IMG/VR virus record: IMGVR_UViG_3300036987_000495 | Span: 1 to 26,306 of that record | Source: a virus | Taxonomy: Duplodnaviria > Caudoviricetes | Reading direction: 5' to 3' (one strand) | Length of the DNA stretch: 26,306 bases | Shown: positions 9,258 through 26,185 of the stretch, one piece after another | How the letters are laid out: every line of letters starts with the position of its first letter | Position numbering within the stretch: position 1 is the stretch's first letter | Made by a program: the position numbers and the translations under genes | The notes under the pieces: generated by a model | What the model saw: only the letters and a program-made list of their open reading frames with translations | Databases searched by the model: none | Told to the model about the DNA's origin: nothing

Positions 9258-9259
9258 CC

Positions 9260-9682
9260 CTACTTAACCAATGTCAAATTAGCAATCTCTTCATCTAAAT
9301 CCTGCAGCGGATCAACATGTTCACCTTGACCATCATCATTCTTAACTTCTACCTTTGATGTATTCTTTCCATCCATTTTCTCAACCATGAATTGATTGGC
9401 TGCTAAACAAGTACGTTTATCTGTATAATCATCACAGATTTTATCAATATTCTCTAAGTATTTTTTATATCGACCTTTGATAAAGGCCAATCCCTCGTCT
9501 TTTATTTCAGCCCTACGAGAGTCGATTTCCGCAATTATATTTTTATCACCTAACCAATCATAATATGTAGCTTTCTTAATTCCAATTTCAGCTTGAATAT
9601 CAAGCCTACTACAACCTAATATAAGCATTGTCACAAATCTTTCTATATTCTCAGGAGTCTTATATAATTTTCCTGTTGCCAT
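9260..9682 (-). CDS. Probable terminase small subunit (N-terminal HTH, phBC6A51-like)
   Basis: HTH-like SRLDIQAEIGIKKATYYDW, helical middle, GKNTSKVEV tail; RBS GGAGGTG; upstream of TerL. Confidence 0.65.
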   Translation of the reverse strand: MATGKLYKTPENIERFVTMLILGCSRLDIQAEIGIKKATYYDWLGDKNIIAEIDSRRAEIKDEGLAFIKGRYKKYLENIDKICDDYTDKRTCLAANQFMVEKMDGKNTSKVEVKNDDGQGEHVDPLQDLDEEIANLTLVK

Positions 9683-9716
9683 AATTTCACCTCCACACTG
9701 TCCATTTAGTCATAAT

Positions 9717-9740
9717 AAAAAAGAGCCAAAATATTGACTC
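9717..9740 (-). terminator. Intrinsic terminator between the moron and terS
   Basis: Minus strand GAGTCAA-TATT-TTGGCTC followed by TTTTTT. Confidence 0.7.
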
Positions 9741-9775
9741 ACTCTAAATAAATCTTAAGTATTTATTTTAATTTA

Positions 9776-10498
9776 CTAAAAACTTTTAAAATCAACCAGA
9801 GAAATTTGAGAATCAAAATCATTTTGTGCTAATTTCTCAAGTAACATTTCAACATCTCCACGGATTCTAAGTTTATATAGCCCTTCCTTAGTGAGACACT
9901 GAACTCCTATATCACAAATCGTACTTATGCATTGTGTCGTAGGAACTATAGAATGAAACATATTCAGTATTTTCGTGAAAATTGAATATAAGTTATTATC
10001 AAAATCGTGAGTCATCAGGTTATTTTCCTCAAAACTCATAGCTATTTGCGGATTTTCAATATATTCAATTGGGTAAAGAATATGAATTTTATTCTTTCCT
10101 AATAAAGCAATATCATCATTGAAATGATCCTTTGATAAAAAGCCAACTCTCATTAATACTCCCTTTACCTCTGAAAATCCAATCCATGAACAAGCTAGTA
10201 CGCTTCTATTTATGTATTTTAAAGATAAAGGCTTCTGATTTTCAAATTCTTCTAGAGTTTGCTTATAAACACTAACTATTTTGTCTGTATCTGTGATATT
10301 CAATACTTCAATTTTTTCTTTGAATAATTCTAAAAAGTCATGTAAACCTACACCGGCATACCATCCCATTAAAGGTAGGTTATGAAGTTTTTCATTATTG
10401 TCACTAAATCCAAACTCGTTATGTTTTCCATAGGACACTCTTGAATCAGTTGCAATAATTGAAATGACATCAGAAACATATGTTATCACTATACTCAT
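9776..10498 (-). CDS. Hypothetical protein with proteasome-beta / Ntn-hydrolase-like N-terminus
   Basis: (M)SIVITY...IIATDSRVS...NNEKL...YAGVG parallels the T-x-x-G...LAADSR...K...AG pattern of Ntn proteasome-type subunits. Confidence 0.5.
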   Translation of the reverse strand: MSIVITYVSDVISIIATDSRVSYGKHNEFGFSDNNEKLHNLPLMGWYAGVGLHDFLELFKEKIEVLNITDTDKIVSVYKQTLEEFENQKPLSLKYINRSVLACSWIGFSEVKGVLMRVGFLSKDHFNDDIALLGKNKIHILYPIEYIENPQIAMSFEENNLMTHDFDNNLYSIFTKILNMFHSIVPTTQCISTICDIGVQCLTKEGLYKLRIRGDVEMLLEKLAQNDFDSQISLVDFKSF

Positions 10499-10659
10499 TA
10501 CATCATTTTCCTAAACATTTTCATCATCATTTCAAACAAAAACTTATTCTTAGCCCTATTCACCATCTTACCAGGATTTCCACTCATTAAAACCTCAACA
10601 TTTTTAACCCTGGAATTGACCTTATTCATGCTTCTAACCATTTTATTTAATTGTTTCAT
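10498..10659 (-). CDS. 53-aa basic Met-rich peptide, translationally coupled to the next gene
   Basis: Below the ORF-track cutoff: MKQLNKMVRSMNKVNSRVKNVEVLMSGNPGKMVNRAKNKFLFEMMMKMFRKMM. RBS GGGAG, TATAAT at 10680-10685, TAATG stop/start overlap. Confidence 0.7.
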   Translation of the reverse strand: MKQLNKMVRSMNKVNSRVKNVEVLMSGNPGKMVNRAKNKFLFEMMMKMFRKMM

Positions 10660-10711
10660 TTAATCATCTCCCATAAACAATTATACTTCAAATGGAAGAC
10701 AATTCCTTGAA

Positions 10712-10999
10712 TTATTTCTCATAATAGCCGGTATTCCATTTTCTCATTTCAACCTTCATACCATTATAAATCCGATAACAAGTATGATTTAATTCAGACT
10801 TAACTAAATCTTCCATAGCAAAATAATGTTCACCAAGAATCTCATTAAACCTTTCTTCAGTCAAAGGTTTTTCTTTTGGTTTAGATTTTTTCTTCGGTCT
10901 TATTGATTCTTCTTTTTCTAGAAATATGTTTTCTGCTTTTTCCAGTTTATCTTTCATCTCTTCCAATTTACCCATATCATTATCTTTAATCATCTTCAT
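10712..10999 (-). CDS. Hypothetical protein
   Basis: 95-aa ORF in operon orientation; exact start uncertain. Confidence 0.55.
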   Translation of the reverse strand: MKMIKDNDMGKLEEMKDKLEKAENIFLEKEESIRPKKKSKPKEKPLTEERFNEILGEHYFAMEDLVKSELNHTCYRIYNGMKVEMRKWNTGYYEK

Positions 11000-11090
11000 T
11001 CCCCCATGTTTGAATTAGTTCGCAGTCATCACTATTACAAATAAAAGAGTTATCCCAAAAACATTTATCACAATATGTATATATCTTCAT
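10986..11090 (-). CDS. 34-aa Cys-rich peptide
   Basis: MKIYTYCDKCFWDNSFICNSDDCELIQTWGNEDD; RBS GAGGTG at 11095-11100; overlaps the next gene's start. Confidence 0.5.
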   Translation of the reverse strand: MKIYTYCDKCFWDNSFICNSDDCELIQTWGNEDD

Positions 11091-11102
11091 TAAACACCTC
11101 AC

Positions 11103-11413
11103 TTAAAAATAAACCACAAGAGTATAACGCCCTCTTGTGAGTGGCTTAAGGAGGTCTGGTAACCTTATTTTTAATGTCCCATGGTTTACCTTGCAGCCGT
11201 ACTTCCCCAGACTGATAGGGACAATATATGATTATTTAAATGCAAAAAGAAAAAGGTGCATCAACCTGCTGAATTGACACACCTCCTAGGACTACTCACC
11301 CAGGACTAGCAATTCTTCTTTGTTTAAGGAGGGTCAGGCTCGAACTGAACGAAATTGCAAAACGGCTCCATATAATAATGAGAATACCTATATTAAAAGT
11401 CCCATTAAGGAAC
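11103..11413 (-). ncRNA. Candidate structured RNA / attenuator leader
   Basis: About 310 nt non-coding and GC-richer than its flanks, with several stems. Two minus-strand terminators (11105-11139 and 11244-11284, the latter with G-U pairs that only work on minus). Confidence 0.4.
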
Positions 11414-11415
11414 GA

Positions 11416-11964
11416 TTAACCACCATATTCAATTTCAACTAAATCAGCATTTCGATTCTTAATAAAATCCATCTTGATCTTATTAGACTTGATATATTTT
11501 TCTTGGTCATCCTCACTGTTAATATAATCCAGATTTCTAAGAGAAAAATACAATTCCCTCTCGTCACCGGAATTTACGAAGACATTAAAATTCAACGGTC
11601 TTTTATCAACACAATTAGCCGATTTGAAATCTATCTCATAATCTTTATTTTTGTTTTTAAAATAATTACAAATAAGATATACCAATTCATCTTTAATACT
11701 TGGAACATTATATAATTCTTCCCAAGATGAAAATATCTCATTTAACTCAACAAATTTTAACTCTGATTCATCACATTGCCGGATAACATCAAATGTAAAA
11801 TTACCTTCACCATATGTATCCCAGTCCTTTTGAAGTGCCTGGTTAATATGGATTCCTTTATTCAAATCTCTAATATGTTCTTTCCATCTTCTGGATATAT
11901 CTAAACTTCGACCTATGTAAATTTTATTATTATTTTTGTTAGTAATCCTGTAGATTCCAATCAT
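11416..11964 (-). CDS. GIY-YIG endonuclease
   Basis: GIYRITNKNNNKIYIGRS...RRWKEH...H.N..LQ.DW..YG...F.F...E...YN. Confidence 0.9.
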   Translation of the reverse strand: MIGIYRITNKNNNKIYIGRSLDISRRWKEHIRDLNKGIHINQALQKDWDTYGEGNFTFDVIRQCDESELKFVELNEIFSSWEELYNVPSIKDELVYLICNYFKNKNKDYEIDFKSANCVDKRPLNFNVFVNSGDERELYFSLRNLDYINSEDDQEKYIKSNKIKMDFIKNRNADLVEIEYGG

Positions 11965-12031
11965 TAATCATTTGTCACTGTTCCTTTCCGTTTATGCTTT
12001 TAAGATGTCCCACAACAGGACACCATGAACA

Positions 12032-12232
12032 TTAATTAAATAGCTCTTGAGCATATGTTCTATCATAACTATTTATCATAGCTCCAACTCTTGAATTGGA
12101 TTCAAATTCTAAGTAAACCTTATCTTCATCAATAATTAACTTCTTACCAGTTGACAAATTGACTAATACCAATTCACCATCTTCTTTTTGAACTCTAAAT
12201 TTGCTGGTCATTGATATAATGCTATCTTTCAT
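12032..12232 (-). CDS. Hypothetical protein
   Basis: 66 aa with RBS AAGGT; in operon orientation. Confidence 0.6.
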   Translation of the reverse strand: MKDSIISMTSKFRVQKEDGELVLVNLSTGKKLIIDEDKVYLEFESNSRVGAMINSYDRTYAQELFN

Positions 12233-12254
12233 TATTTACCTTCTTTCTTATGTA

Positions 12255-12612
12255 TTGGGGGAAACGTAATTTTGCGAGCAAAATTCCGATAACATTTCCC
12301 CCAAACCCCCTTTGTATTTAAAATATTTAATTTTTATTTTGCTGTTTTGAAACTAGTGAAAAAACTATATTTATTAATTTGTTTTTTTAAATTAATAAAT
12401 AATATACCTAAATAGGTGAAGCTTTAGCGAACCTATTTAGAGCAAGTCGCGTAGTTCGCGACGAAGCTAACCTTCCTCGTCGTTCTCTTTTATGATTTTT
12501 TGTTTTATGATTTAATAGTTTAATATCTTTTCCATATTATTAATCTAATGGTACTTTTAATATTTTACCCCCCTATTCCTATATATAAATACTATAAGGG
12601 AATGGGGGGGTA
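12255..12612. repeat. Cluster of at least six inverted repeats; candidate replication origin
   Basis: TTGGGGGAAA/TTTCCCCCAA (12255-12304) enclosing AATTTTGC-GA-GCAAAATT; 13-bp AT stem 12368-12401; CTAAATAGGT/ACCTATTTAG 12408-12440; GTCGCG/CGCGAC 12446-12462; TACCCCCC...GGGGGGTA 12566-12612. Directly downstream of the helicase-like gene. Confidence 0.6.
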
Positions 12613-12616
12613 TTAT

Positions 12617-14806
12617 CTAACTTACTTTCTGATAAATACCTTTTCTCACCATATATTTACTAAGCAATTCTTTTAGATGAGTATTCTTTTCTTTTGCTTT
12701 ATCAAATTGTTTTCTTGTAATACCAATTTCTATTAACATTTTTGAAGATTTTATTTCATCACCATTCCAACTATTATTAATCCAATTAACTATTTTCTGT
12801 GAAATGGTTTCTTCTTTAGTATCTCTACCCAAAATTTTACTTTCCTTAAAGCAATCCAATTCATCTTTAATCTTATTTAGATTACACCCAGGCAGCAATT
12901 GATAAATCATTGAGAAAATAATTGATTTATTAGCGAATAAATTTACTTCAATTTTTTCCTCAGTGCAAGTATAATGTCTGAGTTTTGTTCTATGTACTTC
13001 TTGGTAAAAATTAGTTACTATACTGAAATATTTGAATTGGTTTAAATTATCTAAACCAAATTCATAATTTTTATAACCGGATTTATAAACGTCATTTCCA
13101 TATGTAGTTTTACTTCTATCTTTAATTAAAAATTTTTCAGATAGTTTTTCCGCTTTATCCTTATCAGCACAGTATTCTAATACTTTATCCCAATCTGTTT
13201 TAATACTGAGATATTGAATAACATATTCATAATCTGGTAATGTATCCCAACCGAACTGAAACATAATATTACTATTTTGCATGTAGTTTTTTCCTTTAGT
13301 ATTACCAAAATAATGAGTTGTGTTTTCATCAAGCATAGATATGAGTTTTTTATTATAAAGGTATTTAGCTATATCAACAGCTTTGGTTTTATATGTCACT
13401 ACATAAGCTTTATTATTAAACCCTTGCCATAATCTCTGATTAACAAATTTAGCACAAGCAAAAGCTAAATATTTTTTATTGTTAAATTCAGTTTTGGATA
13501 ATTTATTTTTCATATAAGCATTAATAATAACATTTTTATAAGATCTTATATTATCTATATCCAAAAATTTAATACTATTATTATCATACATTTTTAAATA
13601 GAGTGGATCATATAAGGCAGTGCCATCAAATATTATGGTTTTAAATGTATCAGAATAAATATCTTTAAAATCTTTACTGCCTATGGTTGAAATAAACTCA
13701 ATATTCTTTTCATAGACATAGAAACCACCTCTAACTAAAACAGTATGTATATGGTTAAGTTCACGCTTAAAATTATTTCCCATATATTTTTCCCAAAGCA
13801 GCATAAAATCTTGATCTGTCTTGCATATATTTCCATTGTCTGTATTGGATATGATAAATCTTTTATAGGATTTTCTTAATTGTTGCATCTTATCAATAAT
13901 CTTATTTTGTATTTTATTAAACATATTTTCAAACAGAGTTTTCTCGGCAGTATCTTCATATGTACATTGGCTTATTGCTGTTGATATTTCATTAAGTAAA
14001 GCTTTATTAACTTTGACAGTATCTAAAACATCTGGACGCTCATCAATTAATAAAATTGTTCTTTTTTTATTTGGTATATCTTTTTTATCTTTATCTTCTT
14101 TAGTTTCTGGTTCATTATTATAAACTGAATACTGCTTAATATAAGTGCCAGATTCTCTTAATCGAGAATTGGTAATAAGCAATATAGGATATTTCTTTTG
14201 TTCATTTTGCTGTTTAGAAATTTTACAATCTTTAAAAAACGAACAATTATTTGAGGTACATATTTTACTATCACTTTGTTTTATTTTTTTATTTAAGCAA
14301 ATATCTTCATTCCAACTTTCCAGAATATATGTAAAACCACCATAACCATTTTCTTCTAATAATCTTTGTGTTTCTCTTAGACTTTCTAGTCTATCAGTCA
14401 CAAGAATAAGTCCATCAGATGTTATCTTATTTTTATATAGTTCAATAAACTTTTTCAGAATTTCCAAGGATATGGAACTTTTTCCAAAACCACAGGGAGC
14501 AGGATTTCCCACAACAATATTTTCTTTAAGTTCACCAAAGATTATTTTTGCTGTTTCTTCTGCAAATTTAATTTGTTCTTGAATAGCTCCACCCCTTAAA
14601 GAAAATGTTTGAATAAAATTATCAACGACATCTTTCACTGACTGTTTGGCTTGATCATCAAGAGTTACTAATTCATCGGCATTATAAACAATTTTTGATA
14701 ATTCAATTATATTGTTCATATAAGCATTGCCGTCTAGTAGTTTTTCACCAATTACCTTATATTGAGTGTTATACTCAATTTCTTTAATTAAGATTTTTTC
14801 TCTCAT
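12617..14806 (-). CDS. SF2-helicase-like replication / origin-binding protein
   Basis: Walker A APCGFGKS; four-Cys insert (C...CTSNNC...DC); Walker B LLIDERP; motif III-like FDGTA; motif VI-like YQEVHRTKLR; C-terminal wHTH-like tail. Confidence 0.7.
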   Translation of the reverse strand: MREKILIKEIEYNTQYKVIGEKLLDGNAYMNNIIELSKIVYNADELVTLDDQAKQSVKDVVDNFIQTFSLRGGAIQEQIKFAEETAKIIFGELKENIVVGNPAPCGFGKSSISLEILKKFIELYKNKITSDGLILVTDRLESLRETQRLLEENGYGGFTYILESWNEDICLNKKIKQSDSKICTSNNCSFFKDCKISKQQNEQKKYPILLITNSRLRESGTYIKQYSVYNNEPETKEDKDKKDIPNKKRTILLIDERPDVLDTVKVNKALLNEISTAISQCTYEDTAEKTLFENMFNKIQNKIIDKMQQLRKSYKRFIISNTDNGNICKTDQDFMLLWEKYMGNNFKRELNHIHTVLVRGGFYVYEKNIEFISTIGSKDFKDIYSDTFKTIIFDGTALYDPLYLKMYDNNSIKFLDIDNIRSYKNVIINAYMKNKLSKTEFNNKKYLAFACAKFVNQRLWQGFNNKAYVVTYKTKAVDIAKYLYNKKLISMLDENTTHYFGNTKGKNYMQNSNIMFQFGWDTLPDYEYVIQYLSIKTDWDKVLEYCADKDKAEKLSEKFLIKDRSKTTYGNDVYKSGYKNYEFGLDNLNQFKYFSIVTNFYQEVHRTKLRHYTCTEEKIEVNLFANKSIIFSMIYQLLPGCNLNKIKDELDCFKESKILGRDTKEETISQKIVNWINNSWNGDEIKSSKMLIEIGITRKQFDKAKEKNTHLKELLSKYMVRKGIYQKVS

Positions 14807-14852
14807 TTACTGCAATCACTTTATCTCCCTTCTTTTGTGTTTTAAATAACAC

Positions 14853-15035
14853 CTAAGTTTTAAATTCTCTAATAATTTTTTTTAACTCTGGATTATCTTT
14901 AAAAATAAACACCGTTCTATCTGGATTATCTTTATTTGGTTTTATATCAATAATTTGATATCCAAGTTTTAATAAATGACGTGCTAGTTTAGCTGTGAAG
15001 ATTAGCTTTACATTTCTTTCTTGAACTGTACCCAT
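14853..15035 (-). CDS. DUF5659-like small phage protein
   Basis: IFTAKLARHLLKLGYQIIDIKPNK.NPDRTVFIF; RBS AAGGAG. Confidence 0.7.
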   Translation of the reverse strand: MGTVQERNVKLIFTAKLARHLLKLGYQIIDIKPNKDNPDRTVFIFKDNPELKKIIREFKT

Positions 15036-15063
15036 TCTGATTCGACTCCTTTTTAGTGAATAT

Positions 15064-15097
15064 AAAAAGCAACCATTCCAACCCTAAAATAGTTGCT
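15064..15097 (-). terminator. Intrinsic terminator upstream of the replication genes
   Basis: Minus strand AGCAACTATTTT-AGGGTT-GGAATGGTTGCT-TTTT (stem with G-U pairs). Confidence 0.6.
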
Positions 15098-15152
15098 CAT
15101 AACGTTTCTAAACTAAATATGTACCGGATGCCGGTTACTAGAAGGTATTAAA

Positions 15153-15353
15153 CTATTTCTTACCTATCAAGTAGTTTAATAAAGAATTAAACTGATGATC
15201 CGGCAATTGCATCCTACCTTTACGAAAATGGCAAATTATGGTTTCGCATATATTTACCTTTTTCGACAGAAAGCGAACCTTCACACCCGTTTCCTTTATA
15301 TAGCTTTCCAAGGATTCTCTAAGTCCATCTTGTTCTTTTATGTTAAATGCCAT
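15153..15353 (-). CDS. Small XRE/Cro-like HTH protein
   Basis: GVKVRFLSKKVNICETIICHFRKG...L HTH pattern; RBS AAAGGA. Confidence 0.7.
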   Translation of the reverse strand: MAFNIKEQDGLRESLESYIKETGVKVRFLSKKVNICETIICHFRKGRMQLPDHQFNSLLNYLIGKK

Positions 15354-15584
15354 ATTATCTTCCTTTCTTTTAAATTTTAATTTACAACCTATACATTAAG
15401 AGATATAAATATCTTCTATTATTTTATTTGTTTTAAAATACTTGAAATATTCTCTTTCCCCTATATACACTTTTATTAATTTATTGAATTTACTTATTCA
15501 TACCCCTAAGAAACACTAATAACATAAGTGTTTTAAGGTATTTAAATAATAAGTTTAGGATTAATCAAAAGGACGAATTTCTTT

Positions 15585-18500
15585 TCAGATAATTACTTCA
15601 ACTTCTTCAGTCTTTATTTTATTTTTATTGTAATTTTCTTTTTTATTTCTTCTTTCGTTTTCCTCAGCGCATGATGGATTACTACAAGTTTTAGCATTAC
15701 GAACCTTAATAAATTTATCTCCGCAAATCTTACATTTCCCTATTGGCTTCCCCTCATACTCAGCTAAACTTACTAAAGGTTTCCAGACATTTTCAACTAA
15801 AAAACATATATCATCTTGGTTTTTGTCTAAGTCAACAATAGATATAACTGATAAAATCTCGGAATCTATTTTAATTTCAATTAATTTGTTTTGGTTAAAT
15901 TTATTAAGTAGTGCTTCTGTATTAGTTATTCTGGCAAAATTGTTTAAGGTGTTAATATTCAATTTTCCATTTTTCTTAAATTTGGTATTTTTATAGAGCT
16001 TTATCTCATGTTTTTTATATAACTTAGAAAGACAAACCAACACATAATACAAGTTCTTTTCATTATCCGTAAATGAATTTATTTTCTCATATTCTTTGTT
16101 AGTAATAATTACAGATTCTGGTTTCAGCCTATCATCTATTTTTTGATTTAGCTCTTTGAATAATAGTTTATCCTCATCTTTATAAGCATATCTCGTTCTT
16201 GCTTTAAGTTCTCTATTGCTCTTTATATTATTTTTTATATTTCTAAGTAGCTCCCACCCAAAACAATTCCATAAGATAACTCGACTTTTATCTTTTCTAT
16301 ACTCTTGGCAATATTCGATATCTACCAAATAATCAACACATTTTCGAACATTACCATTAAACAACTCAATCATTTTATTTCTAAAAATATGATAGGTTAT
16401 ATCGTATTTACTGAAAAACTCATTATCCGGTTCTTCTCTTTTCATTTTGTTTAACTCTTCATTTATACGTTTAATGTCTTTTCTTGCTCTATATAATAGG
16501 ATTTCCAAGTCTTTATAGAGTTTACTTGACCTATCAACCCAAAAATCTCTACACAATATGGCATAATTAAATTCCTCATCCGTAAAATATTCATACTCGT
16601 TGTAACCGGCATTTTTTTGAATGTATTTAGAGATCCTATCCACCACACCATTTCCACATTTAGCAACTGCTGTTTTAGTTTTTCCCTTTGCCCATTGGAA
16701 AAAGTATGGTGATTTTTCTTTAACCAATAAATCATATAGTTCTTTGTCTTTTTTTGGTAGTTCAATGTTTTGACCTGTTTTTGGAAAGTCAATAGTAAAA
16801 TTATTTAGTGCCTGAAGTCTGGCAATGAATTTCATATCTAATTTGAAACCTTCATTATACGCCATACTTAAATATTTTGTTAACGCATTGCTGATATCTC
16901 CAATTTGATTTCCTTCAAATGCCTTTCTTAAGGTATCCTTAATATTTTCTTGGTTTATTTCTCTTGCTTTAGCTTTTGGCATATCATAGTAAACAGGTAG
17001 ACATTTTTTCCTAACGTTTTTAATTAACTCCTGGGACGTTGCGATGTAACAAATATCGCCATCACAATCATTTTTCATTTGCAATTGAGCCAAATCATGA
17101 ACAGAAACATAGGTTGCATTACCCTTAAACCAATCTTGACATTCTTCTGACTTAGTTAATTTTCTAACACAGTGTTCCGATGGATGTAAGTGTGGACTTC
17201 TGAGAAGATCAACCTTTTTAATATCTGTATCATTATGATATGCATTGTAAACATGACCTTTAGGAATAAGCCCTTTAGGATTTTCTATATTCAGAAATAA
17301 CCTCTGACAAAAAGCATAGACATCCGGAAATATGTAACTGTAGTAACCTGGGCTTAAAATTCTGCCACCTTTAGCATCTTTCCGAATACTTTTAACAACA
17401 TTCTCGATTTGAGTTTTAGTATGTTGATCTTGGAGCAATTGAGGATAGATTAGTAGAGCTTCTTGAAATGGCATTAAATTTTTATTATCTTCAGTAGCAC
17501 CTAAAGCTTTAAATGCTGCTTCTTTGTTTTTATGTAAGTTTTTTATATAGTCAATAGTAGGTTGACATAAGCTTGCAATAGTATCTTTATCCTCAACAGG
17601 GATATTCAAGGTATTAAGGTACTGATAACTTAACTCCTTATATTCTTGTGGGGGATTTTCAAGACCGCAAATATAAAATTTGGAATTGATTTCTTTCATT
17701 TTATCCGAAAAGGATTCCCAACTATTATAATGACCACTCATTTTAAACTGACTACTTATTAAAATAACCCATACATCTTCCTTTTCTATATCATGGTCTA
17801 TATCATAAATATCACGAACTATAGTATTACCGGCAATTTCTTTGGCAAATGTCAAGAAGTCGAATTCAACCAATGCACCTTTGCACCATTTATTTCTAAA
17901 TTGCCAATTACCACTTATACCCTTAATTCTTCCAGAGAGAAAAAGACCTGCCCCATCCATATGGTTTACTTCGACATCTGCCATTTTATTAGTAACTGAC
18001 AGTTTTTTATTGTTGGTATCTATGTAGGTTACTTTTTCATTTAATATAGTTTTAAAGTCATTTACCACCACTATTTTTTCATATGGTATTTCTATTGGAA
18101 TTCCAGCACTCATGACTAAAGCTTTGTTTGCCAATAGTTTTCCTGTATTAATGCCATTATTTTCATTGATTTGCTTCTCTGTTAATCCCCCCATAAGATA
18201 GTTATTATATTTTTTCAATGCTTTTTCTGAAATAAAGGTAAGATCTTGTTTTCGTTGCTGACCAGCTCCCGAGGTAAAGAATACAAATTTCTTCTTGGCA
18301 TAATTAATTTTGCGTTTTAATTTTCTTTTCTTAAGGTTAGGAAAATCTATAGATTTCGATTTCATATATGTAGCAAAATAAAATCCATTATCCATTATCT
18401 GATTAAATATGTCATCATGTTGAACTTTAATAATGATAATGTCTTCGATAACTGTTCTTTGTTTAGTCTCTTGGTTAACAAATAAGTTCAACAAATCATT

Positions 18501-18740
18501 AGTAAACCAAGAGACTTGATTTTGATATGTAAGATGCTTTGAGTTGATCCTTCGAGTGCCAGTAAAGCTTTTTATTTTTTCATATAGTTTTTGTTTAGCT
18601 TCTACTTTTTCTTTGGCAGATGCATTTTTATAGGCATTGTAAAGTTGATTCTCTTCCTTAGTAAAAAATTTGAATGTGGTATATTTATACAAATTATATT
18701 GTGGTAATTTTAGCTTCTTAATAGCTTGCTCCTTTGTCAT
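15585..18740 (-). CDS. Single-subunit two-barrel RNA polymerase, cellular RdRP / SPbeta YonO-like family, with C-terminal Zn finger
   Basis: Ordered family motifs: FFTSGAGQQRK, MDGAG, QFRNKWCKG, SQFK, LSYQYL, RSPHLHP, catalytic DCDGD (DxDGD, nt 17055-17069), IGDISN, TIDFPKTG. C-terminal CKIC...CSNPSC. Strong RBS AAGGAGG. Confidence 0.9.
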   Translation of the reverse strand: MTKEQAIKKLKLPQYNLYKYTTFKFFTKEENQLYNAYKNASAKEKVEAKQKLYEKIKSFTGTRRINSKHLTYQNQVSWFTNDLLNLFVNQETKQRTVIEDIIIIKVQHDDIFNQIMDNGFYFATYMKSKSIDFPNLKKRKLKRKINYAKKKFVFFTSGAGQQRKQDLTFISEKALKKYNNYLMGGLTEKQINENNGINTGKLLANKALVMSAGIPIEIPYEKIVVVNDFKTILNEKVTYIDTNNKKLSVTNKMADVEVNHMDGAGLFLSGRIKGISGNWQFRNKWCKGALVEFDFLTFAKEIAGNTIVRDIYDIDHDIEKEDVWVILISSQFKMSGHYNSWESFSDKMKEINSKFYICGLENPPQEYKELSYQYLNTLNIPVEDKDTIASLCQPTIDYIKNLHKNKEAAFKALGATEDNKNLMPFQEALLIYPQLLQDQHTKTQIENVVKSIRKDAKGGRILSPGYYSYIFPDVYAFCQRLFLNIENPKGLIPKGHVYNAYHNDTDIKKVDLLRSPHLHPSEHCVRKLTKSEECQDWFKGNATYVSVHDLAQLQMKNDCDGDICYIATSQELIKNVRKKCLPVYYDMPKAKAREINQENIKDTLRKAFEGNQIGDISNALTKYLSMAYNEGFKLDMKFIARLQALNNFTIDFPKTGQNIELPKKDKELYDLLVKEKSPYFFQWAKGKTKTAVAKCGNGVVDRISKYIQKNAGYNEYEYFTDEEFNYAILCRDFWVDRSSKLYKDLEILLYRARKDIKRINEELNKMKREEPDNEFFSKYDITYHIFRNKMIELFNGNVRKCVDYLVDIEYCQEYRKDKSRVILWNCFGWELLRNIKNNIKSNRELKARTRYAYKDEDKLLFKELNQKIDDRLKPESVIITNKEYEKINSFTDNEKNLYYVLVCLSKLYKKHEIKLYKNTKFKKNGKLNINTLNNFARITNTEALLNKFNQNKLIEIKIDSEILSVISIVDLDKNQDDICFLVENVWKPLVSLAEYEGKPIGKCKICGDKFIKVRNAKTCSNPSCAEENERRNKKENYNKNKIKTEEVEVII

Positions 18741-18832
18741 CTATTTATCTTTCTCCTCCTTATATTAAAAGGCAGCTACAGGTACTTAATTATGGCTGCC
18801 AGCAGGTTATTTTAGTTTCCATAGTTTAGTTT

Positions 18833-18872
18833 GTGAAGACAGGAGAATTTAACCCCTGTCTTCACTTATTTT
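18833..18872 (+). terminator. 11-bp hairpin with a U-tract on the plus strand only
   Basis: GTGAAGACAGG/CCTGTCTTCAC followed by TTATTTT on plus. On minus it is followed by AAACTAAAC, so it is not a canonical terminator for the phage operon. Confidence 0.55.
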
Positions 18873-18888
18873 AAAGAATTTTTCTGGT

Positions 18889-19365
18889 TTACTTTTTCAA
18901 TATTATAGGTTCAGGCATATTAATATTAGGTCTATATTTTTCCATAATATTATTTTGAGATAAAATCTCTTGTAATTTATCCTTATCAAATTCAAGTTTA
19001 ATAGCTTCATTATCATCAAGCAAACGATGTAATGGTTTAGGTTTTAATTCGTCTATATTTATTTGACCTAAATTTTTTAGTTCTGCTAACGTATTTTGAC
19101 TTAATTCCAGATTTTTTAATTGATTAACCGATAAGTAGTAGACTTGCTTAATATCATCTGGATCAATCAATATCCAATCTATCGCTAGCATATCGTCTTG
19201 AGTAGGATTCCATTGTTCACTTGAATTCTCAAAAGGAATTTTTTGAGTAGTTATTATAAACTTACCGTTTTTCAATTCAACCCATTTTTTTCCTTGCCAT
19301 TCCGTTCTGGTTAATATTTTATTATCCTTAAGATTAGTTAAAGCATTTTCAAAATCAAAATTCAT
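18889..19365 (-). CDS. DUF2829 / Tad2-like domain protein with ~90-aa C-terminal extension
   Basis: F..AL..LK....LTR..W.G...W.PTQ.DMLA.DW signature in residues ~1-67; RBS AGGAGG. Confidence 0.75.
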   Translation of the reverse strand: MNFDFENALTNLKDNKILTRTEWQGKKWVELKNGKFIITTQKIPFENSSEQWNPTQDDMLAIDWILIDPDDIKQVYYLSVNQLKNLELSQNTLAELKNLGQINIDELKPKPLHRLLDDNEAIKLEFDKDKLQEILSQNNIMEKYRPNINMPEPIILKK

Positions 19366-19393
19366 TATTTTCTTCCTCCTAAATTATCTATTT

Positions 19394-19489
19394 TTAATAA
19401 CTGATATTTTTTATTGGCTTATTGCTTGCGCCAACTTGCAATAAGTCTTCTTTTTTACCTGGACTTCTACAATGATTAAACCAATTCAT
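19394..19489 (-). CDS. Possible 31-aa peptide
   Basis: MNWFNHCRSPGKKEDLLQVGASNKPIKNISY; purine-rich RBS AAAGGGGTGA; no homology recognised. Confidence 0.35.
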   Translation of the reverse strand: MNWFNHCRSPGKKEDLLQVGASNKPIKNISY

Positions 19490-19601
19490 TAGCACTCACC
19501 CCTTTCTCACAAATGAAATTCTGCACTAAGTTCCTGATAGAACGTTATGCCATATTTTTCCTTACTGCGACGTTGAGTTGAAGAAATTTATATTCACAAT
19601 A

Positions 19602-19630
19602 TTGACAACTAAGTTTTGTGCCACTATAAT
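19602..19630 (+). promoter_or_regulatory. Perfect-consensus sigma-A promoter, antisense to the early operon
   Basis: TTGACA (19602-19607) - 17 bp - TATAAT (19625-19630). Confidence 0.8.
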
Positions 19631-19709
19631 AAAACTACCACATAATATACTTATATAGGGTTTTCTAAATAATGGTAATGAATCTCAGGAGTAAAATTGA
19701 ATAATAATG

Positions 19710-19736
19710 TTAGCACTCAGTAATGGCGAGTGCTTA
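19710..19736. promoter_or_regulatory. CIRCE element (HrcA operator)
   Basis: TTAGCACTC-AGTAATGGC-GAGTGCTTA versus consensus TTAGCACTC-N9-GAGTGCTAA: 17/18 identities with the exact 9-nt spacer. Confidence 0.85.
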
Positions 19737-19739
19737 TTT

Positions 19740-19767
19740 ATAATATCATACCTTGATTAATAGTCAA
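19740..19767 (-). promoter_or_regulatory. sigma-A promoter immediately upstream of CIRCE, directed into the Tad2-like and RNA polymerase genes
   Basis: Minus strand TTGACT - 16 bp - TATTAT with extended -10 TG; CIRCE begins 3 nt after the -10. Confidence 0.7.
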
Positions 19768-19784
19768 GGCTTTTGGATTTGGGC

Positions 19785-19815
19785 AAAAGGTAGTCGTAAT
19801 GACTACCTTTTTTTT
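19785..19815. terminator. Bidirectional intrinsic terminator
   Basis: AAAAGGTAGTC-GTAAT-GACTACC-T8; T8 on plus, T4 on minus. Confidence 0.8.
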
Positions 19816-20041
19816 ATTCCAGCCAGTAACAAAACCTTGTAAGTAACTCAACTATTTTCCTTTTGATTCCATTAATAATACAAGTGACTAAATCTTCTTC
19901 TGGCTCATCGAAAAAATAATCGTCATCGTAATCGAAAAAATCTTCCTCAGGATAATAATCATTTGAATAATAATTTTTATATTGTCTCTCGATATCGATA
20001 ATATGGTCATTGAGTGGAAAATCAATCACCTTCGCTGCCAT
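19814..20041 (-). CDS. Small acidic/aromatic early protein
   Basis: 75 aa with DYYPEEDFFDYDDDYFFDEPEED; coupled to the upstream gene by TAATG. Confidence 0.65.
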   Translation of the reverse strand: MAAKVIDFPLNDHIIDIERQYKNYYSNDYYPEEDFFDYDDDYFFDEPEEDLVTCIINGIKRKIVELLTRFCYWLE

Positions 20042-20694
20042 TAAGCCACCTTCTTCCAGATAACAATATGGTTCTCACCAGTGAAATTTTCATGTTCTTG
20101 AATAACTTCATCTATATCCACATATTCAAGATGAAATTTTTCATCCAGTCCCATTTCTTTAGCTTTTTTTGTTAGTATTTCTAGATATCTTTCAGTGTTA
20201 TATAAATTCTTATTTCCACGACATCCCGGACTAAAAGTTTTGTACGCAGAATAATACCAAGTTTTTTTATCCCATTTATGAACACTGTCTTTGCGAGCAA
20301 AATTTCCTTTGCTATCTTTTATCACCCATATAAAATATTTACCATCATCAAAATCAAAGGTTTCACTAATGAATGGGTATCTTGGTATGTTCATATTAGT
20401 TTTTTCAGATTCTTCATACATAACTTTAACCATATCTATTTCTAATATATGGAATTGCTTTTCCAATTGAAATCTTTTATTAAGTGATTTAAGTTCGTCT
20501 AATTCAGCTTGAGCAATCTCTAAAGTTGAACTTGAGTAAAAACCATTAACCAAAAATTTTGCGTAAGTATAGCTAACCTGTTTAGTGTCTTCATCATAAG
20601 AGATTGATCTACTTGAGACATAATTTCCTTCTTGGTCTTTCAATACGAAAGTTGTTTCTTTATTGATTTGTTTCAACATAGCAATTTTTAACAT
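20041..20694 (-). CDS. Hypothetical early protein with an internal domain duplication
   Basis: FVLKDQEGNY...YTYAKF...EKQFHILEID versus WVIKDSKGNF...YSAYKTF...DEKFHLEYVD; RBS GAGG. Confidence 0.75.
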   Translation of the reverse strand: MLKIAMLKQINKETTFVLKDQEGNYVSSRSISYDEDTKQVSYTYAKFLVNGFYSSSTLEIAQAELDELKSLNKRFQLEKQFHILEIDMVKVMYEESEKTNMNIPRYPFISETFDFDDGKYFIWVIKDSKGNFARKDSVHKWDKKTWYYSAYKTFSPGCRGNKNLYNTERYLEILTKKAKEMGLDEKFHLEYVDIDEVIQEHENFTGENHIVIWKKVA

Positions 20695-20736
20695 TTTTGA
20701 TTCCTCTCTTTCATTTTGTTTTGCTTCCTTGAAATG

Positions 20737-20842
20737 ATAATATCATCATTATATATTGGTGTCAATTCATTTAATCATGATATTTAATCATGGTATTTAT
20801 TATATTTATTTCTTTGACTATAATTATCATCTATTATATAAT
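20737..20842. promoter_or_regulatory. Divergent sigma-A promoter pair (lysis/lysogeny switch) with a tandem 13-bp repeat between them
   Basis: Minus: TTGACA (20765-20760) - 17 - TATTAT (20742-20737) with extended TG. Plus: TTGACT (20814-20819) - 17 - TATAAT (20837-20842). ATTTAATCATGAT/ATTTAATCATGGT at 20769-20794. Confidence 0.75.
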
Positions 20843-20862
20843 CTTATCAAGGGAGTGATATC

Positions 20863-21603
20863 ATGAGCGAAATCAAATTATCAGATCATATAAGGGATTC
20901 TTTAAGAACAGAAAGATTAAAAAATAAAATCAAAGGAACAGATATATGTAAATTATTAGATAAGCATCAAAGTTTTGTCAGCCATATTGAAAATCATATT
21001 GTAAAAAGTGTGCAATACGATGATTTAAAAAAAATTTTTGGTTTCATATTACAAATTGAAGATCCTCAATTAAGTAAGTATCTTGATGAATTAATAAAAA
21101 TAGATGATACAGAAAAACCAAATCAAAAAAATACCATTAAAAAAAATGAAGAACCTAATTATCAAAAATTATATGAAGATAGACAAGAAGAACAACTTGA
21201 AAAACTCCAGGATATAGTTGAGATATTTAGGGATGAGATGTCATATTATCCCCCTGATTATGATGATTGCGAAGACGATAATATTTTTGAAACCGTAGAT
21301 AAGTTTTTAACAACTTATATTGATATAATGTTAAACAGCGAATCTGAAATATCCCAAAGTTTTTACAACTTTATGAAATTACCATTGCAAAAATTAAATC
21401 CTGTTCAATTTCACAAGTTAATTGATTACGCAAATAATTTATTAGAATATGAATATGTATTTGAGAGTGGACAAAATTCAAAAACACAGAAATACCCTCA
21501 TTATAGAGCAAGATATAAAAAAGAGTTACTCAATAAATTAAATGGAACAAAAAATAATAATTCCAATGAAGATGAATCAGAAGACTCTTCCGAAGATACA
21601 TAA
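20863..21603 (+). CDS. XRE-family HTH repressor candidate
   Basis: LRTERLKNKIKGTDICKLLDKHQSFVSHIEN...LKKI HTH; divergent from the early operon; acidic helical C-domain with no recognisable S24 peptidase. Confidence 0.75.
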   Translation: MSEIKLSDHIRDSLRTERLKNKIKGTDICKLLDKHQSFVSHIENHIVKSVQYDDLKKIFGFILQIEDPQLSKYLDELIKIDDTEKPNQKNTIKKNEEPNYQKLYEDRQEEQLEKLQDIVEIFRDEMSYYPPDYDDCEDDNIFETVDKFLTTYIDIMLNSESEISQSFYNFMKLPLQKLNPVQFHKLIDYANNLLEYEYVFESGQNSKTQKYPHYRARYKKELLNKLNGTKNNNSNEDESEDSSEDT

Positions 21604-22387: not shown

Positions 22388-23542
22388 TTAATCTTGTATT
22401 GCTGTTACAATTCCATTGTCTAAATATATATATCGATAATTGTCATAAACCCATTGTTCACTTGTTCCAGAAGCATAGGTACTCCGATTAATTTTTTTAG
22501 GTTTTCCCCATGTTGAATTCCTTACTTCATCGGCACTCATTCCAATTGCTGGTTCCTTTTTAACAGTATAAGAAGTAGTTTTACTAATAAAATCATGCTC
22601 TTCAATATTACCCCAGCTATTCGTATCCTTAACCTTTATTTTTCCCCCATACGTATCATTAACATATAATATCTCTCTGTCATCACCGGCTTCCGAAAAA
22701 CCAAACATGTTATCTTTTGTTGGACTCCAATAATAAGTAAATGTATATTTAGGTCCCAATTCTGGAGATGCAGATTCTATCTTCCCTTGAGGTTTAAGAG
22801 TGTAAACATCAAAAACTTTATTACCTATACTACTAGAAAACCCCCAGCTACCCTCAATTTTATAATAAACAGAATTTAGATACACGTTTGTGTCTTTATA
22901 ATCACCAACTTCTCTAAACAAGTCGCGAGCTTCAACAAAATATTTTTTGTTGAATAACTTTACAGCTTCATTAAAAATAGCAGCATTAAGATTATTTTTC
23001 ATTTCATTCAGCAACTGATTTGAATCTAAATAATCATTTCCGACAAAACCAATCAATCGATAAGATGTACGAATATCGTCAAGTTTTTGATTGGTTTTAT
23101 AATTATCGTAAGTTTTTAACGCTTCTCCATAATATGCCTGCTTTAATAGTTCTTTTGTGTCTGAGTACGTTTCTGTATTTTTTAGATAATCTATTGATTT
23201 TTGATAATCCTTATTATTTAAAGCTTCTTTTCCCGCCAAATAATTTGCTTCTACTTCTAAATTGGTTGAATTTTTATACCTTTGCATATTTTTAAAAATC
23301 TCAATAGCGCTATCATAGTATTTGTCTTTAACAAAAGATTGAGCTTTTCTATATTGAAGTTCTTTTGTAATCAATGGAGAACTTGCCCAACCAGCTATCA
23401 GAATTACAATGATTGCAGCACTAATAATACCAAGACGAATTCGTTTTTTCTTAGTTTTAATTGCAAGTTGTTTACTTTCTATCTCAACAGCTTTTTTAAT
23501 TTCATCTTCCTTGTCTTGTATAACTTGTTCATCATTATCCAT
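22388..23542 (-). CDS. Membrane-anchored helical (TPR-like) repeat protein with a small C-terminal alpha/beta domain
   Basis: One TM segment after a basic run (KKKRIRLGIISAAIIVILIAGW); repeats ending in YKNS/YSDT/YLDS/YKDT; C-terminal IGMSADEV..STWGKP..IN...EQWVY...YIYLDNG.V.AIQ. Confidence 0.8.
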   Translation of the reverse strand: MDNDEQVIQDKEDEIKKAVEIESKQLAIKTKKKRIRLGIISAAIIVILIAGWASSPLITKELQYRKAQSFVKDKYYDSAIEIFKNMQRYKNSTNLEVEANYLAGKEALNNKDYQKSIDYLKNTETYSDTKELLKQAYYGEALKTYDNYKTNQKLDDIRTSYRLIGFVGNDYLDSNQLLNEMKNNLNAAIFNEAVKLFNKKYFVEARDLFREVGDYKDTNVYLNSVYYKIEGSWGFSSSIGNKVFDVYTLKPQGKIESASPELGPKYTFTYYWSPTKDNMFGFSEAGDDREILYVNDTYGGKIKVKDTNSWGNIEEHDFISKTTSYTVKKEPAIGMSADEVRNSTWGKPKKINRSTYASGTSEQWVYDNYRYIYLDNGIVTAIQD

Positions 23543-23693
23543 TAATACATACCTCCCTCCAAGTAATAACTATATCATTAGAACTGGCAGAAACTTGTCG
23601 AAATCTAGTAGATTTGGCAAAAACAAAAACCCTCACTCGGAGGGAAATATTTTATCAATTAATGGTATTGATGCTTCTGAACAAAGTAAACAA

Positions 23694-23963
23694 CTAAATC
23701 AGACTATATACCAGATTTGCCCCATAAAGCACCTTAATTATTCTTAACTGGCTTTTAAATTCCTTTTAGCAGCATAAATTAGATAGATACTAATTAAGCC
23801 AATTCCGATGAGTTTATAGTAATGTAAAGAGTTATGGTTAATGAAATATTTTGTAATTGGATTACTTTCTACGGCTCCCTGGGATAAAGCTAGTAAGGTT
23901 GTTAGATAATCTAAGATGTTTAATAAGCAGAGAAGTAGGAGTAGTTGGTAATACTTTTCTCAA
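23694..23963 (-). pseudogene. Frameshifted small membrane-protein gene (DUF5658-like)
   Basis: RBS GGAG plus TTG at 23963. Removing one A near codon 3 and adding one near 23755 restores MRKYYQLLLLLCLLNILDYLTTLLALSQGAVESNPITKYF...YKLIG...QLRIIKVLYGANLVYSLI*, with the D..TT...G..E.NP signature. Confidence 0.65.
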
Positions 23964-23976
23964 GGTTTGCTCTCCA

Positions 23977-24843
23977 CTAATTTCTTTTCTTAAGTTTAAC
24001 CTGCTTATCAAATGTTTGAATTGACCCATTTAATACATTTTTTAGAATAAATCCTACAATATTCTCCCCGTCGATTTTTATTTCTTCAACACTCTCTATA
24101 ATGGATATTTCTGCTTCAATCCTATCAATTTTTATGAACGGAAATGTTAATGAAGTTGTTTCAATGTATATATATTCATCAAATTTCTTAGAAATTAAAA
24201 CTGGCCCGAACTTCTTAAAATTATCATTTGAAAAGAAACTATCAACAACATCTTTAATAGTCATAATTGGTTGGAAATTTAAATCGTATAAAAATATCTC
24301 ATTTGTCATACCAGCTATCTGTATTTTTTCTGTTATCTTCTCTAGTCCTTTTTGTTGCAATTGTTGTTTAACCCACTCTTCATCGTGAACAATGTTAAGA
24401 TTTTTAGTACGTGGAACTAATGCATGTAGTAATATAACTATTGTTTTAATCTTTCCTTCCCAATCTGCTTCCGTAGGTTCTCTTAATTCGTAAAGAAGAA
24501 TTCCATTTGCCTTAGCTACATCTATTGCACCATTTTGATAACCTGTTCTTGTGACAAAAATTCCTCTTGGTTGTCCAGGAAGATCATCTAATATTGCTTT
24601 GAATTGTAGTATTGCCCCTTGCGGAACAGTAGACTTCCAATCTTTTGCTTGAACAATTGTACAGTATCTGATTCCCCCAACTTCAAACTCCCAAAAAATA
24701 TCTATCTGATGACTTGTTGTTTTTCCTTGAATCATAACGTTATGCTGAACATTTATTGTTTTGACTGAATCCTGATTTAGAATTTCGTTGAAAATCTGCT
24801 GAGCCAAATTCTCATAAGAAATACCGGTATTTTTCTTCAACAT
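23977..24843 (-). CDS. Mrr-like PD-(D/E)xK restriction endonuclease domain protein
   Basis: G..YE...HQIDI...IVQAKDW...V....F...L.D...GIFVT..GYQ.GA...A...GI.L in the N-terminal ~120 aa; RBS GGAGG; no methylase adjacent. Confidence 0.85.
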   Translation of the reverse strand: MLKKNTGISYENLAQQIFNEILNQDSVKTINVQHNVMIQGKTTSHQIDIFWEFEVGGIRYCTIVQAKDWKSTVPQGAILQFKAILDDLPGQPRGIFVTRTGYQNGAIDVAKANGILLYELREPTEADWEGKIKTIVILLHALVPRTKNLNIVHDEEWVKQQLQQKGLEKITEKIQIAGMTNEIFLYDLNFQPIMTIKDVVDSFFSNDNFKKFGPVLISKKFDEYIYIETTSLTFPFIKIDRIEAEISIIESVEEIKIDGENIVGFILKNVLNGSIQTFDKQVKLKKRN

Positions 24844-25237
24844 TAATCCTCCAACTTAACGATTCATAGTATCATTACTACATAAATTATATAACAATTA
24901 TAATATTGAAGTATATATATCATGATATAAAACCCAAAAAACACTTAATGTTCCAGGGGTAATCTAATAAAGTCAAAAATCAATTCTGTGCCAAAATTCA
25001 ATGGTAATTACTTTAGTTTTAGAAGTAATACTCCTTTGGGAATATAAATCTATACCAAAAAACATATGACTCTTATTTTCTTAATAAAAAACATGGACTA
25101 GAATCATTTAAATGACATTGTAAGCCGTTTTTACGTTTAGGTAACAGGAAAATATATGCTAAAATATCCGAAGGCTTAGAAGGGCATATTAGAGGGTGTT
25201 TGTTTATGAAATGAGAAAAGACCCCTGCGAGAGAGGT

Positions 25238-26185
25238 CTATGAAGAAGATACTTTTTTTAATTGTGGTTGAATAAAATCTTGATATTCTTTTATATAAAA
25301 TAATGCTAATTCCAATTTAAACCTTATTTCAAACGGAGGTAAAATATTCTCAATGATTACTTCTTTCGTCGCAAGATCTGTTTCTTCACAAATTTGAATT
25401 CCGTAAGTAGCTATGTTTAAAATCGCAAAGAGATAATTTTGATCATCAATTTCCACACTAATATTTTTTGATAATAATGAACCTATGTTATTATGTTCTT
25501 TATCTTTATTATCAGGTAAGTATTCACCTTTTTTATAACCTGTTCTTTTATCAGCCATAAATACTTGATTTTCAGTACGATTAATTATTAGTTTAATTGC
25601 AGATTTAGGATGAGTGGTTAACTCTCCTATTCCTAGACAACCATGAATGCCTGATTTATGTAACCATTTCCATTTTTCATCTTCAAATAGGGTTTTATAT
25701 ATTATACTAACGCTAATAGATTCTCTTTTTACACCTAGAAATTTATGTAGACATATAGTGAGTTCTTCAGCTAAATCTTTAATTTGATTATGTGGTTTGG
25801 TAATATGAATAAAGGGATTTGTATTATCAATGCTAATCTGATTTAAAATATAATCCTTAAATCTATCAGCCTTTTTGTTTGTTATGGAGTTTGTACTCGA
25901 TAATATATCTTGTAATACTGTTCTACTTTTTGTATTAATTTTATCCATTCTAAAATCATAAAAACTTTTTAAAAAAATAAATAGTAATGAAATTATCAAA
26001 ATAAACCAAAAACAACAATAACACCATTTAACTAAATTGCCATTTGAATCATATAACCCTAGGTTTTTACCGGCAATTTGTATGATATTAAACCAATAAC
26101 TAGTTACTGTTATAGATAAAAAAGTTATGAACCAATGTTCTACAAAAAACCGATGAATTTTATCTAGTTTACTTAACTCTTTCAT
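25238..26185 (-). CDS. Hypothetical protein: two N-terminal TM helices plus a soluble, possibly GAF-like domain
   Basis: Hydrophobic segments at ~17-35 and ~53-72; C-terminal GSLLSKNI...AILNIATYG strand pattern; terminator at ~25216-25239. Confidence 0.6.
   Translation of the reverse strand: MKELSKLDKIHRFFVEHWFITFLSITVTSYWFNIIQIAGKNLGLYDSNGNLVKWCYCCFWFILIISLLFIFLKSFYDFRMDKINTKSRTVLQDILSSTNSITNKKADRFKDYILNQISIDNTNPFIHITKPHNQIKDLAEELTICLHKFLGVKRESISVSIIYKTLFEDEKWKWLHKSGIHGCLGIGELTTHPKSAIKLIINRTENQVFMADKRTGYKKGEYLPDNKDKEHNNIGSLLSKNISVEIDDQNYLFAILNIATYGIQICEETDLATKEVIIENILPPFEIRFKLELALFYIKEYQDFIQPQLKKVSSS

Follow-up and report, generated by a model that had tools for sequence, protein, structure and literature searches.

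A near-consensus copy of the inverted repeat that controls chaperone expression (CIRCE), the operator of the heat-shock repressor HrcA, was found at positions 19710-19736 of the phage record IMGVR_UViG_3300036987_000495. It lies on the predicted start of a minus-strand promoter, designated P1, that leads to a Tad2-like gene and a YonO-like RNA polymerase gene. The whole record, 26,306 bases with a GC content of 30%, was analysed and is referred to as the window. The repeat had been noticed in an earlier reading of the letters alone (the original prediction); that observation was confirmed, and the interpretation attached to it, ie that heat or misfolding stress de-represses the polymerase through HrcA, was partly supported. 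The reading we favour, at somewhat less than even confidence, is that the repeat acts chiefly as an RNA switch on a promoter which the family has for its Tad2-like and polymerase genes, with HrcA at most a weak input. A local RNA switch of this kind, with at most weak heat-shock input, is likely when set against a stress trigger shared by the family. Its close rival is a reading in which HrcA holds P1 as a second lock. The weights given to these readings are judgements; no computation separates the RNA switch from the second lock.

The repeat matches the CIRCE consensus at 17 of 18 arm positions, with the exact 9-nt spacer, and was the sole match in a consensus scan of the window. No match with three or fewer mismatches appeared in any of 100 shuffles, and about 1e-5 sites with at most one mismatch are expected in the window by chance. 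The single mismatch is at 19735, in the promoter-proximal arm and just ahead of the predicted +1. P1 itself (19740-19767, minus strand) is a predicted sigma-A promoter scoring 10/12, with a -35 of TTGACT at 19767, a 16-nt spacer and a TG-extended -10 of TATTAT ending at 19740. The repeat begins 3 nt past this -10. This AT-rich region shows no excess of promoter-like sites (44 against 40.7 expected), and because the promoter scan alone is not significant, the support for P1 rests on promoters at the same position in two relatives, described below. The placing of the repeat on P1, as originally claimed, thus holds as a prediction.

The complementarity that suggests an RNA function starts at 19734, ie at the predicted +1, and the mismatch falls in a base that is predicted not to be transcribed. 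By prediction, the first 10 nt of the transcript, including three bases of the spacer, form a duplex of -19.3 kcal/mol with a ribosome-binding element that lies 230 nt further downstream, compared to -9.0 kcal/mol for the local hairpin. A DNA operator would leave those three spacer bases unconstrained. The partner is a ribosome-binding and start element (19487-19506, minus strand) which is kept in both relatives, and which in the window contains a perfect CIRCE half-site (19489-19497; expected 0.005 per 1000 nt) overlapping the start of a 31-codon open reading frame (ORF). That half-site is the window's version of the shared element. The 255-nt leader folds into the closed form with a z score of -2.3, as good a fold being reached by 3 of 200 shuffles. 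In the predictions, the local hairpin is the fold of every prefix up to 230 nt, and the switch has taken place in the prefix of 245 nt. The predicted pair probability of the ribosome-binding helix is 0.98 at 37°C and 0.95 at 55°C; an RNA thermometer was ruled out, the helix being predicted not to melt by 55°C. No match to Rfam was found at the gathering score.

Facing P1 is a predicted antisense sigma-A promoter (19602-19630, plus strand) which scores 12/12 and is the best promoter match within 15000-21500. Its predicted RNA is about 180 nt long (19637-19815) and would overlap the first 100 nt or so of the P1 leader. The folding z score of this RNA, -3.55, is not independent support, because its terminator is included. 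That terminator, a hairpin at 19785-19815, had been proposed to insulate P1 from the upstream genes. Such insulation was not established: a tract of 8 U follows the hairpin on the plus strand, compared to only 4 U on the minus strand, and in the scan it counts as a terminator for the plus strand alone. It may serve mainly to end the antisense RNA, providing a weak end for the upstream two-gene operon and perhaps permitting read-through from upstream. The antisense promoter, the half-site, a hairpin at 18771-18800, a palindrome over the P1 -35 and a 13-mer discussed below had all been overlooked in the original inventory, the site and layout of which otherwise stand.

The favoured RNA switch would operate as follows. 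A new transcript would first fold into the local hairpin, as the folding predicts, and when about 245 nt had been made its first 10 nt would pair with the ribosome-binding element and close it. Antisense RNA from 19602-19630 could cover those first nucleotides and so reopen the element, or might silence P1 by collision. Transcription passing the U-poor hairpins downstream would extend into the polymerase gene, whose product would, on the example of YonO, transcribe the late genes. Silence in the lysogen would come from phage parts (an Xre-like repressor, the antisense RNA and the RNA lock) and not from HrcA.

Conservation was assessed at 97 loci around relatives of the polymerase, taken from three collections. 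Three of these represent a single contig, and in 84 the upstream DNA amounts to 1.5 kb or more. Most are distant (about 32%), the close relatives mostly being cut inside the polymerase gene, and the count does not extend to the upstream DNA of seven protein relatives at 59-66%, one of which is from Dehalobacter sp. TeCB1. CIRCE was found at none of the 97, and the best match in any of them has at least five mismatches. Among close relatives of the polymerase, only locus L089 (62%) came with upstream DNA, in which the genes are different ones and 3.8 kb contain no CIRCE. Two integrated prophages are syntenic with the window, namely G262:C38, of about 32 kb (terminase 55%, Tad2-like protein 41%, polymerase 30%), and G420:C134 (Tad2-like protein 59% over 97 aa, terminase 51% over 131 aa, polymerase 23%). 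The hosts of both encode hrcA. The matching region of G262 contains no CIRCE at five or fewer mismatches, and 20 kb of G420 contains none at four or fewer. The original prediction had named absence from all related phages as an outcome that would tell against it, and absence is what was found in the relatives read (both syntenic prophages, L089 and 97 of 97 polymerase loci). Of its proposal that stress de-represses the polymerase, a weak, lineage-specific modulator survives; a shared stress trigger is unlikely, the relatives read being without CIRCE.

The order of elements common to both prophages is a two-gene operon, a hairpin, a sigma-A promoter, a GC-rich hairpin after the start, the ribosome-binding element, the Tad2-like gene, a hairpin and the polymerase gene. 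Their sigma-A promoters score 10/12 and 11/12 and are in the same place as P1. The ribosome-binding element, about 70-90 nt ahead of the Tad2-like gene in the relatives, agrees at 15 of 16 positions between the window and G262, and in both relatives it is a bare start-stop. The upstream two-gene operon is only weakly similar between the window and the relatives (E 0.009-0.38), and the GC-rich hairpins after the start in both relatives are unrelated to the window's in sequence. An opposing promoter scores 11/12 in G262, and G420 offers only 9/12 candidates. Extra small genes have been inserted in G262 along the route from the P1 position to the polymerase. The RNA from the relatives' promoters may end early, at a U7 terminator in G262 and at a hairpin with a U-run in G420, and read-through to their polymerase genes is therefore not established. 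A homologous hairpin follows the Tad2-like gene in all three phages. In the relatives no U-run comes after it, a point in favour of read-through into the polymerase; compensatory pairs were found at none of its 11 pairs in the three sequences. A long-form Tad2-like gene precedes the polymerase in both relatives too. Tad2-based scans returned only the G262 prophage again and short-form Tad2 genes without CIRCE (the alignment scan covered 23 of 64 parts), and the long form was not found in a 301-genome sample of another class. A further candidate relative found with another gene, L255, was rejected as not syntenic.

Two other features of these leaders and genes were observed. Ahead of the Tad2-like gene in both relatives (L222, 9840-10110, and L228, reverse strand) is a leader ORF of 21-22 codons with similar C-terminal ends, followed by a start-stop. 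The start region of this ORF can pair, over 17-20 nt, with sequence further downstream, although the sequences of the two relatives differ. This leader is possibly an attenuator-like RNA, and that part is missing from the window. The polymerases that occupy the same place (window 15585-18740, L222 11097-13991 and L228 7251-9956, minus strand) are 23-30% alike though the terminases are 51-55% alike. Because the polymerases diverge far more than the terminases in the three syntenic phages, it is suggested that the polymerase gene has been swapped between subfamilies.

The mismatch was compared with host operators. CIRCE with at most one mismatch was present in 399 of 401 sampled Bacillota genomes, at about 950 sites (1,752 unlisted rows and about 150 listed, with two rows per site). 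Because of this, and because the hosts of both relatives encode hrcA, the presumed host group almost surely has HrcA. The window's variant, a transversion, was seen in none of the 401 Bacillota genomes and in none of 162 genomes of G262's class, and a viral scan which permitted that variant returned perfect consensus at 127 of 127 sites. Judged as a CIRCE operator, the window site has a near-consensus 9-9-9 repeat and a location at a predicted housekeeping-sigma promoter start. Its variant was not seen among the sampled host operators, and it is not retained at the orthologous promoter in the relatives read; on these two counts the site is not yet classifiable as a CIRCE operator. Nor do the downstream genes include a chaperone or protease, as expected of a class I heat-shock operon.

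A number of points weigh against the RNA switch. The +1, at 19733-19734 by the usual spacing, is a predicted one. The energy of the predicted duplex was reached by 20 of 300 shuffles for the window, 30 of 300 for G262 and 222 of 300 for G420, and since these energies are marginal, conservation of the RNA lock is not established. In G262 the pairing partner sits elsewhere in the leader. The pairing needs neither the exact 9-nt spacer nor the outer three matching bases of the repeat. Position 2 of CIRCE, where the window's change lies, varies at six sites in 5 of the 162 genomes of G262's class, always by transition, one of these sites being ahead of groES and one ahead of an htpG-like gene. That position is thus not untouchable, the window's own change still being unseen. 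In a chlamydial study, HrcA bound sites with 1, 2 and 4 deviations (PMC13750654), so that binding of HrcA at the window site is possible. Finally, phage-internal CIRCEs are genuine in other phages.

These points bear on the close rival, in which a recently gained and selected HrcA operator forms a second lock on P1, proteotoxic stress raising the Tad2-like gene and polymerase several-fold once phage repression is off, with the RNA pairing secondary. We consider this a real possibility, if a doubtful one. The 17/18 match with exact spacing, so rare by chance, is in its favour, as are the near-universal HrcA of the host group, the lone half-sites that also occur near some host groES CIRCEs, and the CIRCEs which other phages carry ahead of non-chaperone genes, including terminase operons (the L136 group and L147). 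The distance of 3 nt past the -10 is adjacent to the commonest viral distance, which is 4 nt in 17 of 45 promoter-site pairs, although 3 nt itself occurs in none of the 45. Against the second lock are also the loss or lack of CIRCE in all relatives read, a variant never found in the sampled host operators, and the complementarity of the spacer to the ribosome-binding element, which an HrcA operator does not itself explain. The two readings may be combined: the 27-bp element could have a dual role, binding HrcA as DNA and locking the ribosome-binding element as RNA, and with the antisense RNA it would gate the polymerase and an anti-immunity sponge by the folding state of the host. We regard this as conceivable and on the unlikely side.

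It is improbable, to our judgement, that the repeat is a captured or formerly functional operator that is now decaying or neutral. The single occurrence, the mismatch absent from sampled host operators and the want of conservation are what such a relic would give. However, no remnant of a host chaperone gene was found, the GC content at the locus (0.31) is like the phage's elsewhere, the family natively has a promoter at this position, and the leader is well structured.

CIRCE in other phages was surveyed by an exact scan of the viral collection, which gave at least 120 loci (about 170 estimated, 47 of 64 parts having been covered) in 57 flank clusters. Seventeen clusters (72 loci) have a match to GroES, GroEL, HtpG, ClpB or Hsp20 within 700 nt. 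The queries did not include DnaK or HrcA, the loci of 14 clusters were too short for a class to be assigned, and 150 of 236 selected ORFs were scanned. Among the remaining 26 clusters, seven are near a phrog_5767 'sigma factor' gene and two are ahead of terminase operons. No member of the YonO-like polymerase family was matched among the scanned ORFs (150 of 236) at these loci. The rare perfect CIRCEs away from chaperone genes in the scanned phages keep the HrcA reading alive.

Several of these loci merit description. In L136, L151, L167, L169, L195, L203 and L147 a perfect CIRCE precedes a terminase operon, and a search of 700 nt around it gave no chaperone match; in the last of these loci the CIRCE directly follows a TTGACA hexamer. 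In L098, L121, L150, L160, L168, L192, L202 and L210, and in L153, L158 and L161, a perfect CIRCE is just upstream of an Hsp20 gene in a phage-like context; some of these loci neighbour an endolysin, DNA polymerase or exonuclease gene, and in the L098 cluster the CIRCE is 4 nt after the -10. The Hsp20 genes apparently encode chaperones of the phages and are controlled by the HrcA of the host. L267, L269 and L270 have strong promoters that are nearly identical and carry a CIRCE with one mismatch, and none of the chaperone queries matched there; the arrangement occurs twice in one genome (G540). The loci L104, L111, L112, L119, L154, L155 and L163 (also L117 and L132) contain 1-4 CIRCEs in gene-poor regions near a phrog_5767 gene, and several of the contigs associated with that gene are 140-176 kb, some with 2-4 CIRCEs. 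L155 has four at a 49-nt period (2952-3125). Other repeated palindromes in these regions resemble what we take to be Rex and LexA boxes. The phrog_5767-linked regions are candidate operator or decoy arrays.

Those arrays lend some plausibility to another proposal of the original prediction, that replicating phage DNA titrates HrcA and so raises host GroE and DnaK for virion folding. Other large phages do carry 2-4 CIRCEs in gene-poor regions, and in the window a single full site is joined by a half-site. A single imperfect site on a promoter start is nevertheless a poor design for a decoy, fitting it worse than the multi-CIRCE arrays do, and the site is absent from relatives which need the same folding help. 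A decoy function in the window is very unlikely.

The control region upstream bears on a further proposal, that release of HrcA by itself triggers the lytic cycle independently of SOS. A two-gene early operon (217 and 75 aa; 19814-20694, minus strand) precedes P1, matched in position in the relatives with weak similarity, and a probable phage repressor of the Xre/HTH_3-like family diverges from it (20863-21603, plus strand). No match to a peptidase S24 domain was found on this repressor, and no LexA-like box was found near the control region. The lack of a self-cleavage domain and of such a box would fit an SOS-independent trigger, as would the role of YonO, which transcribes the late genes of SPbeta and is required for plaques (PMC5467207). 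In the chlamydial data, however, the gene measured rises 4-6-fold upon heat (PMC13750654), a range too shallow, and hence too leaky, for HrcA alone to silence the polymerase. The divergent repressor and early operon upstream and the same layout without CIRCE in the relatives also stand against it. Basal expression of groESL is likewise high in Bacillota. We hold HrcA as sole trigger to be the least probable of the readings, and either it or a decoy to be unlikely.

The P1 -35 is overlain by a palindrome (19748-19769), a candidate site for the phage repressor that was noticed post hoc. A 13-mer of P1, also noticed post hoc, agrees at 12 of 13 positions with a tandem repeat in the repressor control region near the Xre-like gene. 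A 10-mer common to P1 and the repressor region occurs five times against 0.67 expected, which is not a fair test because the 10-mer was defined after the data were seen. A palindromic copy of it lies at 24917-24928, upstream of an Mrr-type gene.

The genes downstream of P1 are those originally described, ie a small ORF, a Tad2-like gene and an RNA polymerase. The 31-codon ORF (19394-19489, minus strand) belongs to no known family. Its 31-aa product is polar and basic by inspection and not hydrophobic, and a type I toxin-antitoxin locus was ruled out as the peptide is not a small hydrophobic toxin. The Tad2-like protein (18889-19365, minus strand) consists of an N-terminal domain of about 66 aa, matching PF11195 (E 4e-11; 43.6 bits against a cut-off of 25), and an extension of about 90 aa; its match to solved Tad2 chains is marginal in sequence (E 0.44-0.9). 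Between it and the polymerase are two hairpins. The first, of 13 bp at 18833-18865, has a U-rich tail on the plus strand and no minus-strand U-tract, as had been said of it, and was unseen at the matching place in the two relatives. The second (18771-18800, minus strand) lies just above the ribosome-binding site of the polymerase and is followed by 4 U in the window.

The polymerase (15585-18740, minus strand) is a YonO-like single-chain enzyme of 1051 aa matching PF05183 (E 1e-15), with 33.4% identity to SPbeta YonO over residues 14-841 (E 3e-93). The catalytic DxDGD is at residues 558-562, and D558, D560 and D562 are invariant in alignments of 8 and 21 proteins. By analogy the enzyme would transcribe the phage late genes, a role suggested by YonO and by the gene order.

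The window further encodes tail, head, portal and terminase genes, a small tyrosine recombinase and a GIY-YIG nuclease. The top named terminase matches are Clostridium and Clostridioides phages (46-59%), and the close polymerase relative that has a name comes from Dehalobacter sp. TeCB1 (62%); the host is inferred to be one of the Bacillota. One contig from a groundwater metagenome run, which may be the source of the window, covers 6400-20975 with zero differences, and no variant contigs were found in that one run; no RNA run is listed as containing the region. Since this contig spans the interval, a misjoin between the repeat and the polymerase is unlikely, and an assembly chimera was set aside. 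The short tyrosine recombinase (8406-9257) is flanked by the genes of the small and large terminase, as it is in both relatives (L223, 5224-5769, and L228), and in the window it is on the opposite strand; the relatives have a separate integrase elsewhere. Past the repressor, 22388-26185 holds cargo-like genes for a membrane-anchored repeat protein, an Mrr-type nuclease (PF04471) and a 315-aa membrane protein, which are possibly defence or exclusion genes.

Compared to known systems, the window site resembles the CIRCE/HrcA operators of class I heat-shock operons (groESL and hrcA-grpE-dnaK) in its 9-9-9 repeat, its 17/18 match and its place just past a sigma-A-type -10. Unlike them it has no downstream chaperone gene, bears a mismatch unseen at about 950 sites and is absent from orthologous promoters; it is also faced by an antisense promoter, and its left arm has a predicted pairing partner in a distant ribosome-binding element. 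In hok/Sok-type systems, leaders with metastable 5' hairpins are controlled by antisense RNA. The window is like these in having an antisense RNA that runs head-to-head across a leader which, by prediction, refolds and masks the ribosome-binding site, and unlike them in that the small ORF is not a hydrophobic toxin and the relatives' element is a bare start-stop. The N-terminal domain of the Tad2-like protein falls above the Pfam cut-off for the Tad2 anti-Thoeris sponge family (PF11195), whereas the protein as a whole is 158 aa with a C-terminal extension; a sponge function is putative, from sequence. The polymerase is like SPbeta YonO in its 33% identity and DxDGD triad, and the setting is alike in being a temperate Bacillota phage with head and tail genes downstream. 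It differs in being about 200 aa longer at the C-terminus, and the relative in G262 is a small prophage. No CIRCE was found near the YonO-like genes of the SPbeta-type loci examined.

Host factors are known to act on phage promoters. The phage phi29 carries Spo0A and Spo0J sites. The action of LexA on P1 of phage GIL01 is shown by binding and reporter work (PMC4551915), and so are CtrA sites in alphaproteobacterial phages, with a signature that recurs across phage lineages (PMC9437464). The window would be like these cases in that a host-factor site on a phage promoter could tie development to the state of the host; unlike the LexA and CtrA cases, the factor would be HrcA and the putative site is confined to one lineage. 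No phage HrcA/CIRCE circuit was found in the literature searched, most subscription papers being outside its coverage. The accessible part of one study deals with host hrcA transcript levels and phage chaperones and with no phage operator (PMC4534711).

Phages are thus already known to read the DNA-damage, sporulation and cell-cycle regulators of their hosts, and a case involving the GroE/HrcA folding sensor was not found in the literature searched. If HrcA acts at P1, a late-gene polymerase would be timed by the chaperone load of the cell, and if the dual role is true, P1 would exemplify, at the level of a promoter, a wider phage use of HrcA that is apparently undescribed. As an RNA switch, the repeat would still show how the expression of a YonO-like polymerase might be gated, a matter which the accessible part of the YonO paper does not address (PMC5467207). 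It would also be a caution that a near-perfect match to a DNA operator can arise at the level of RNA.

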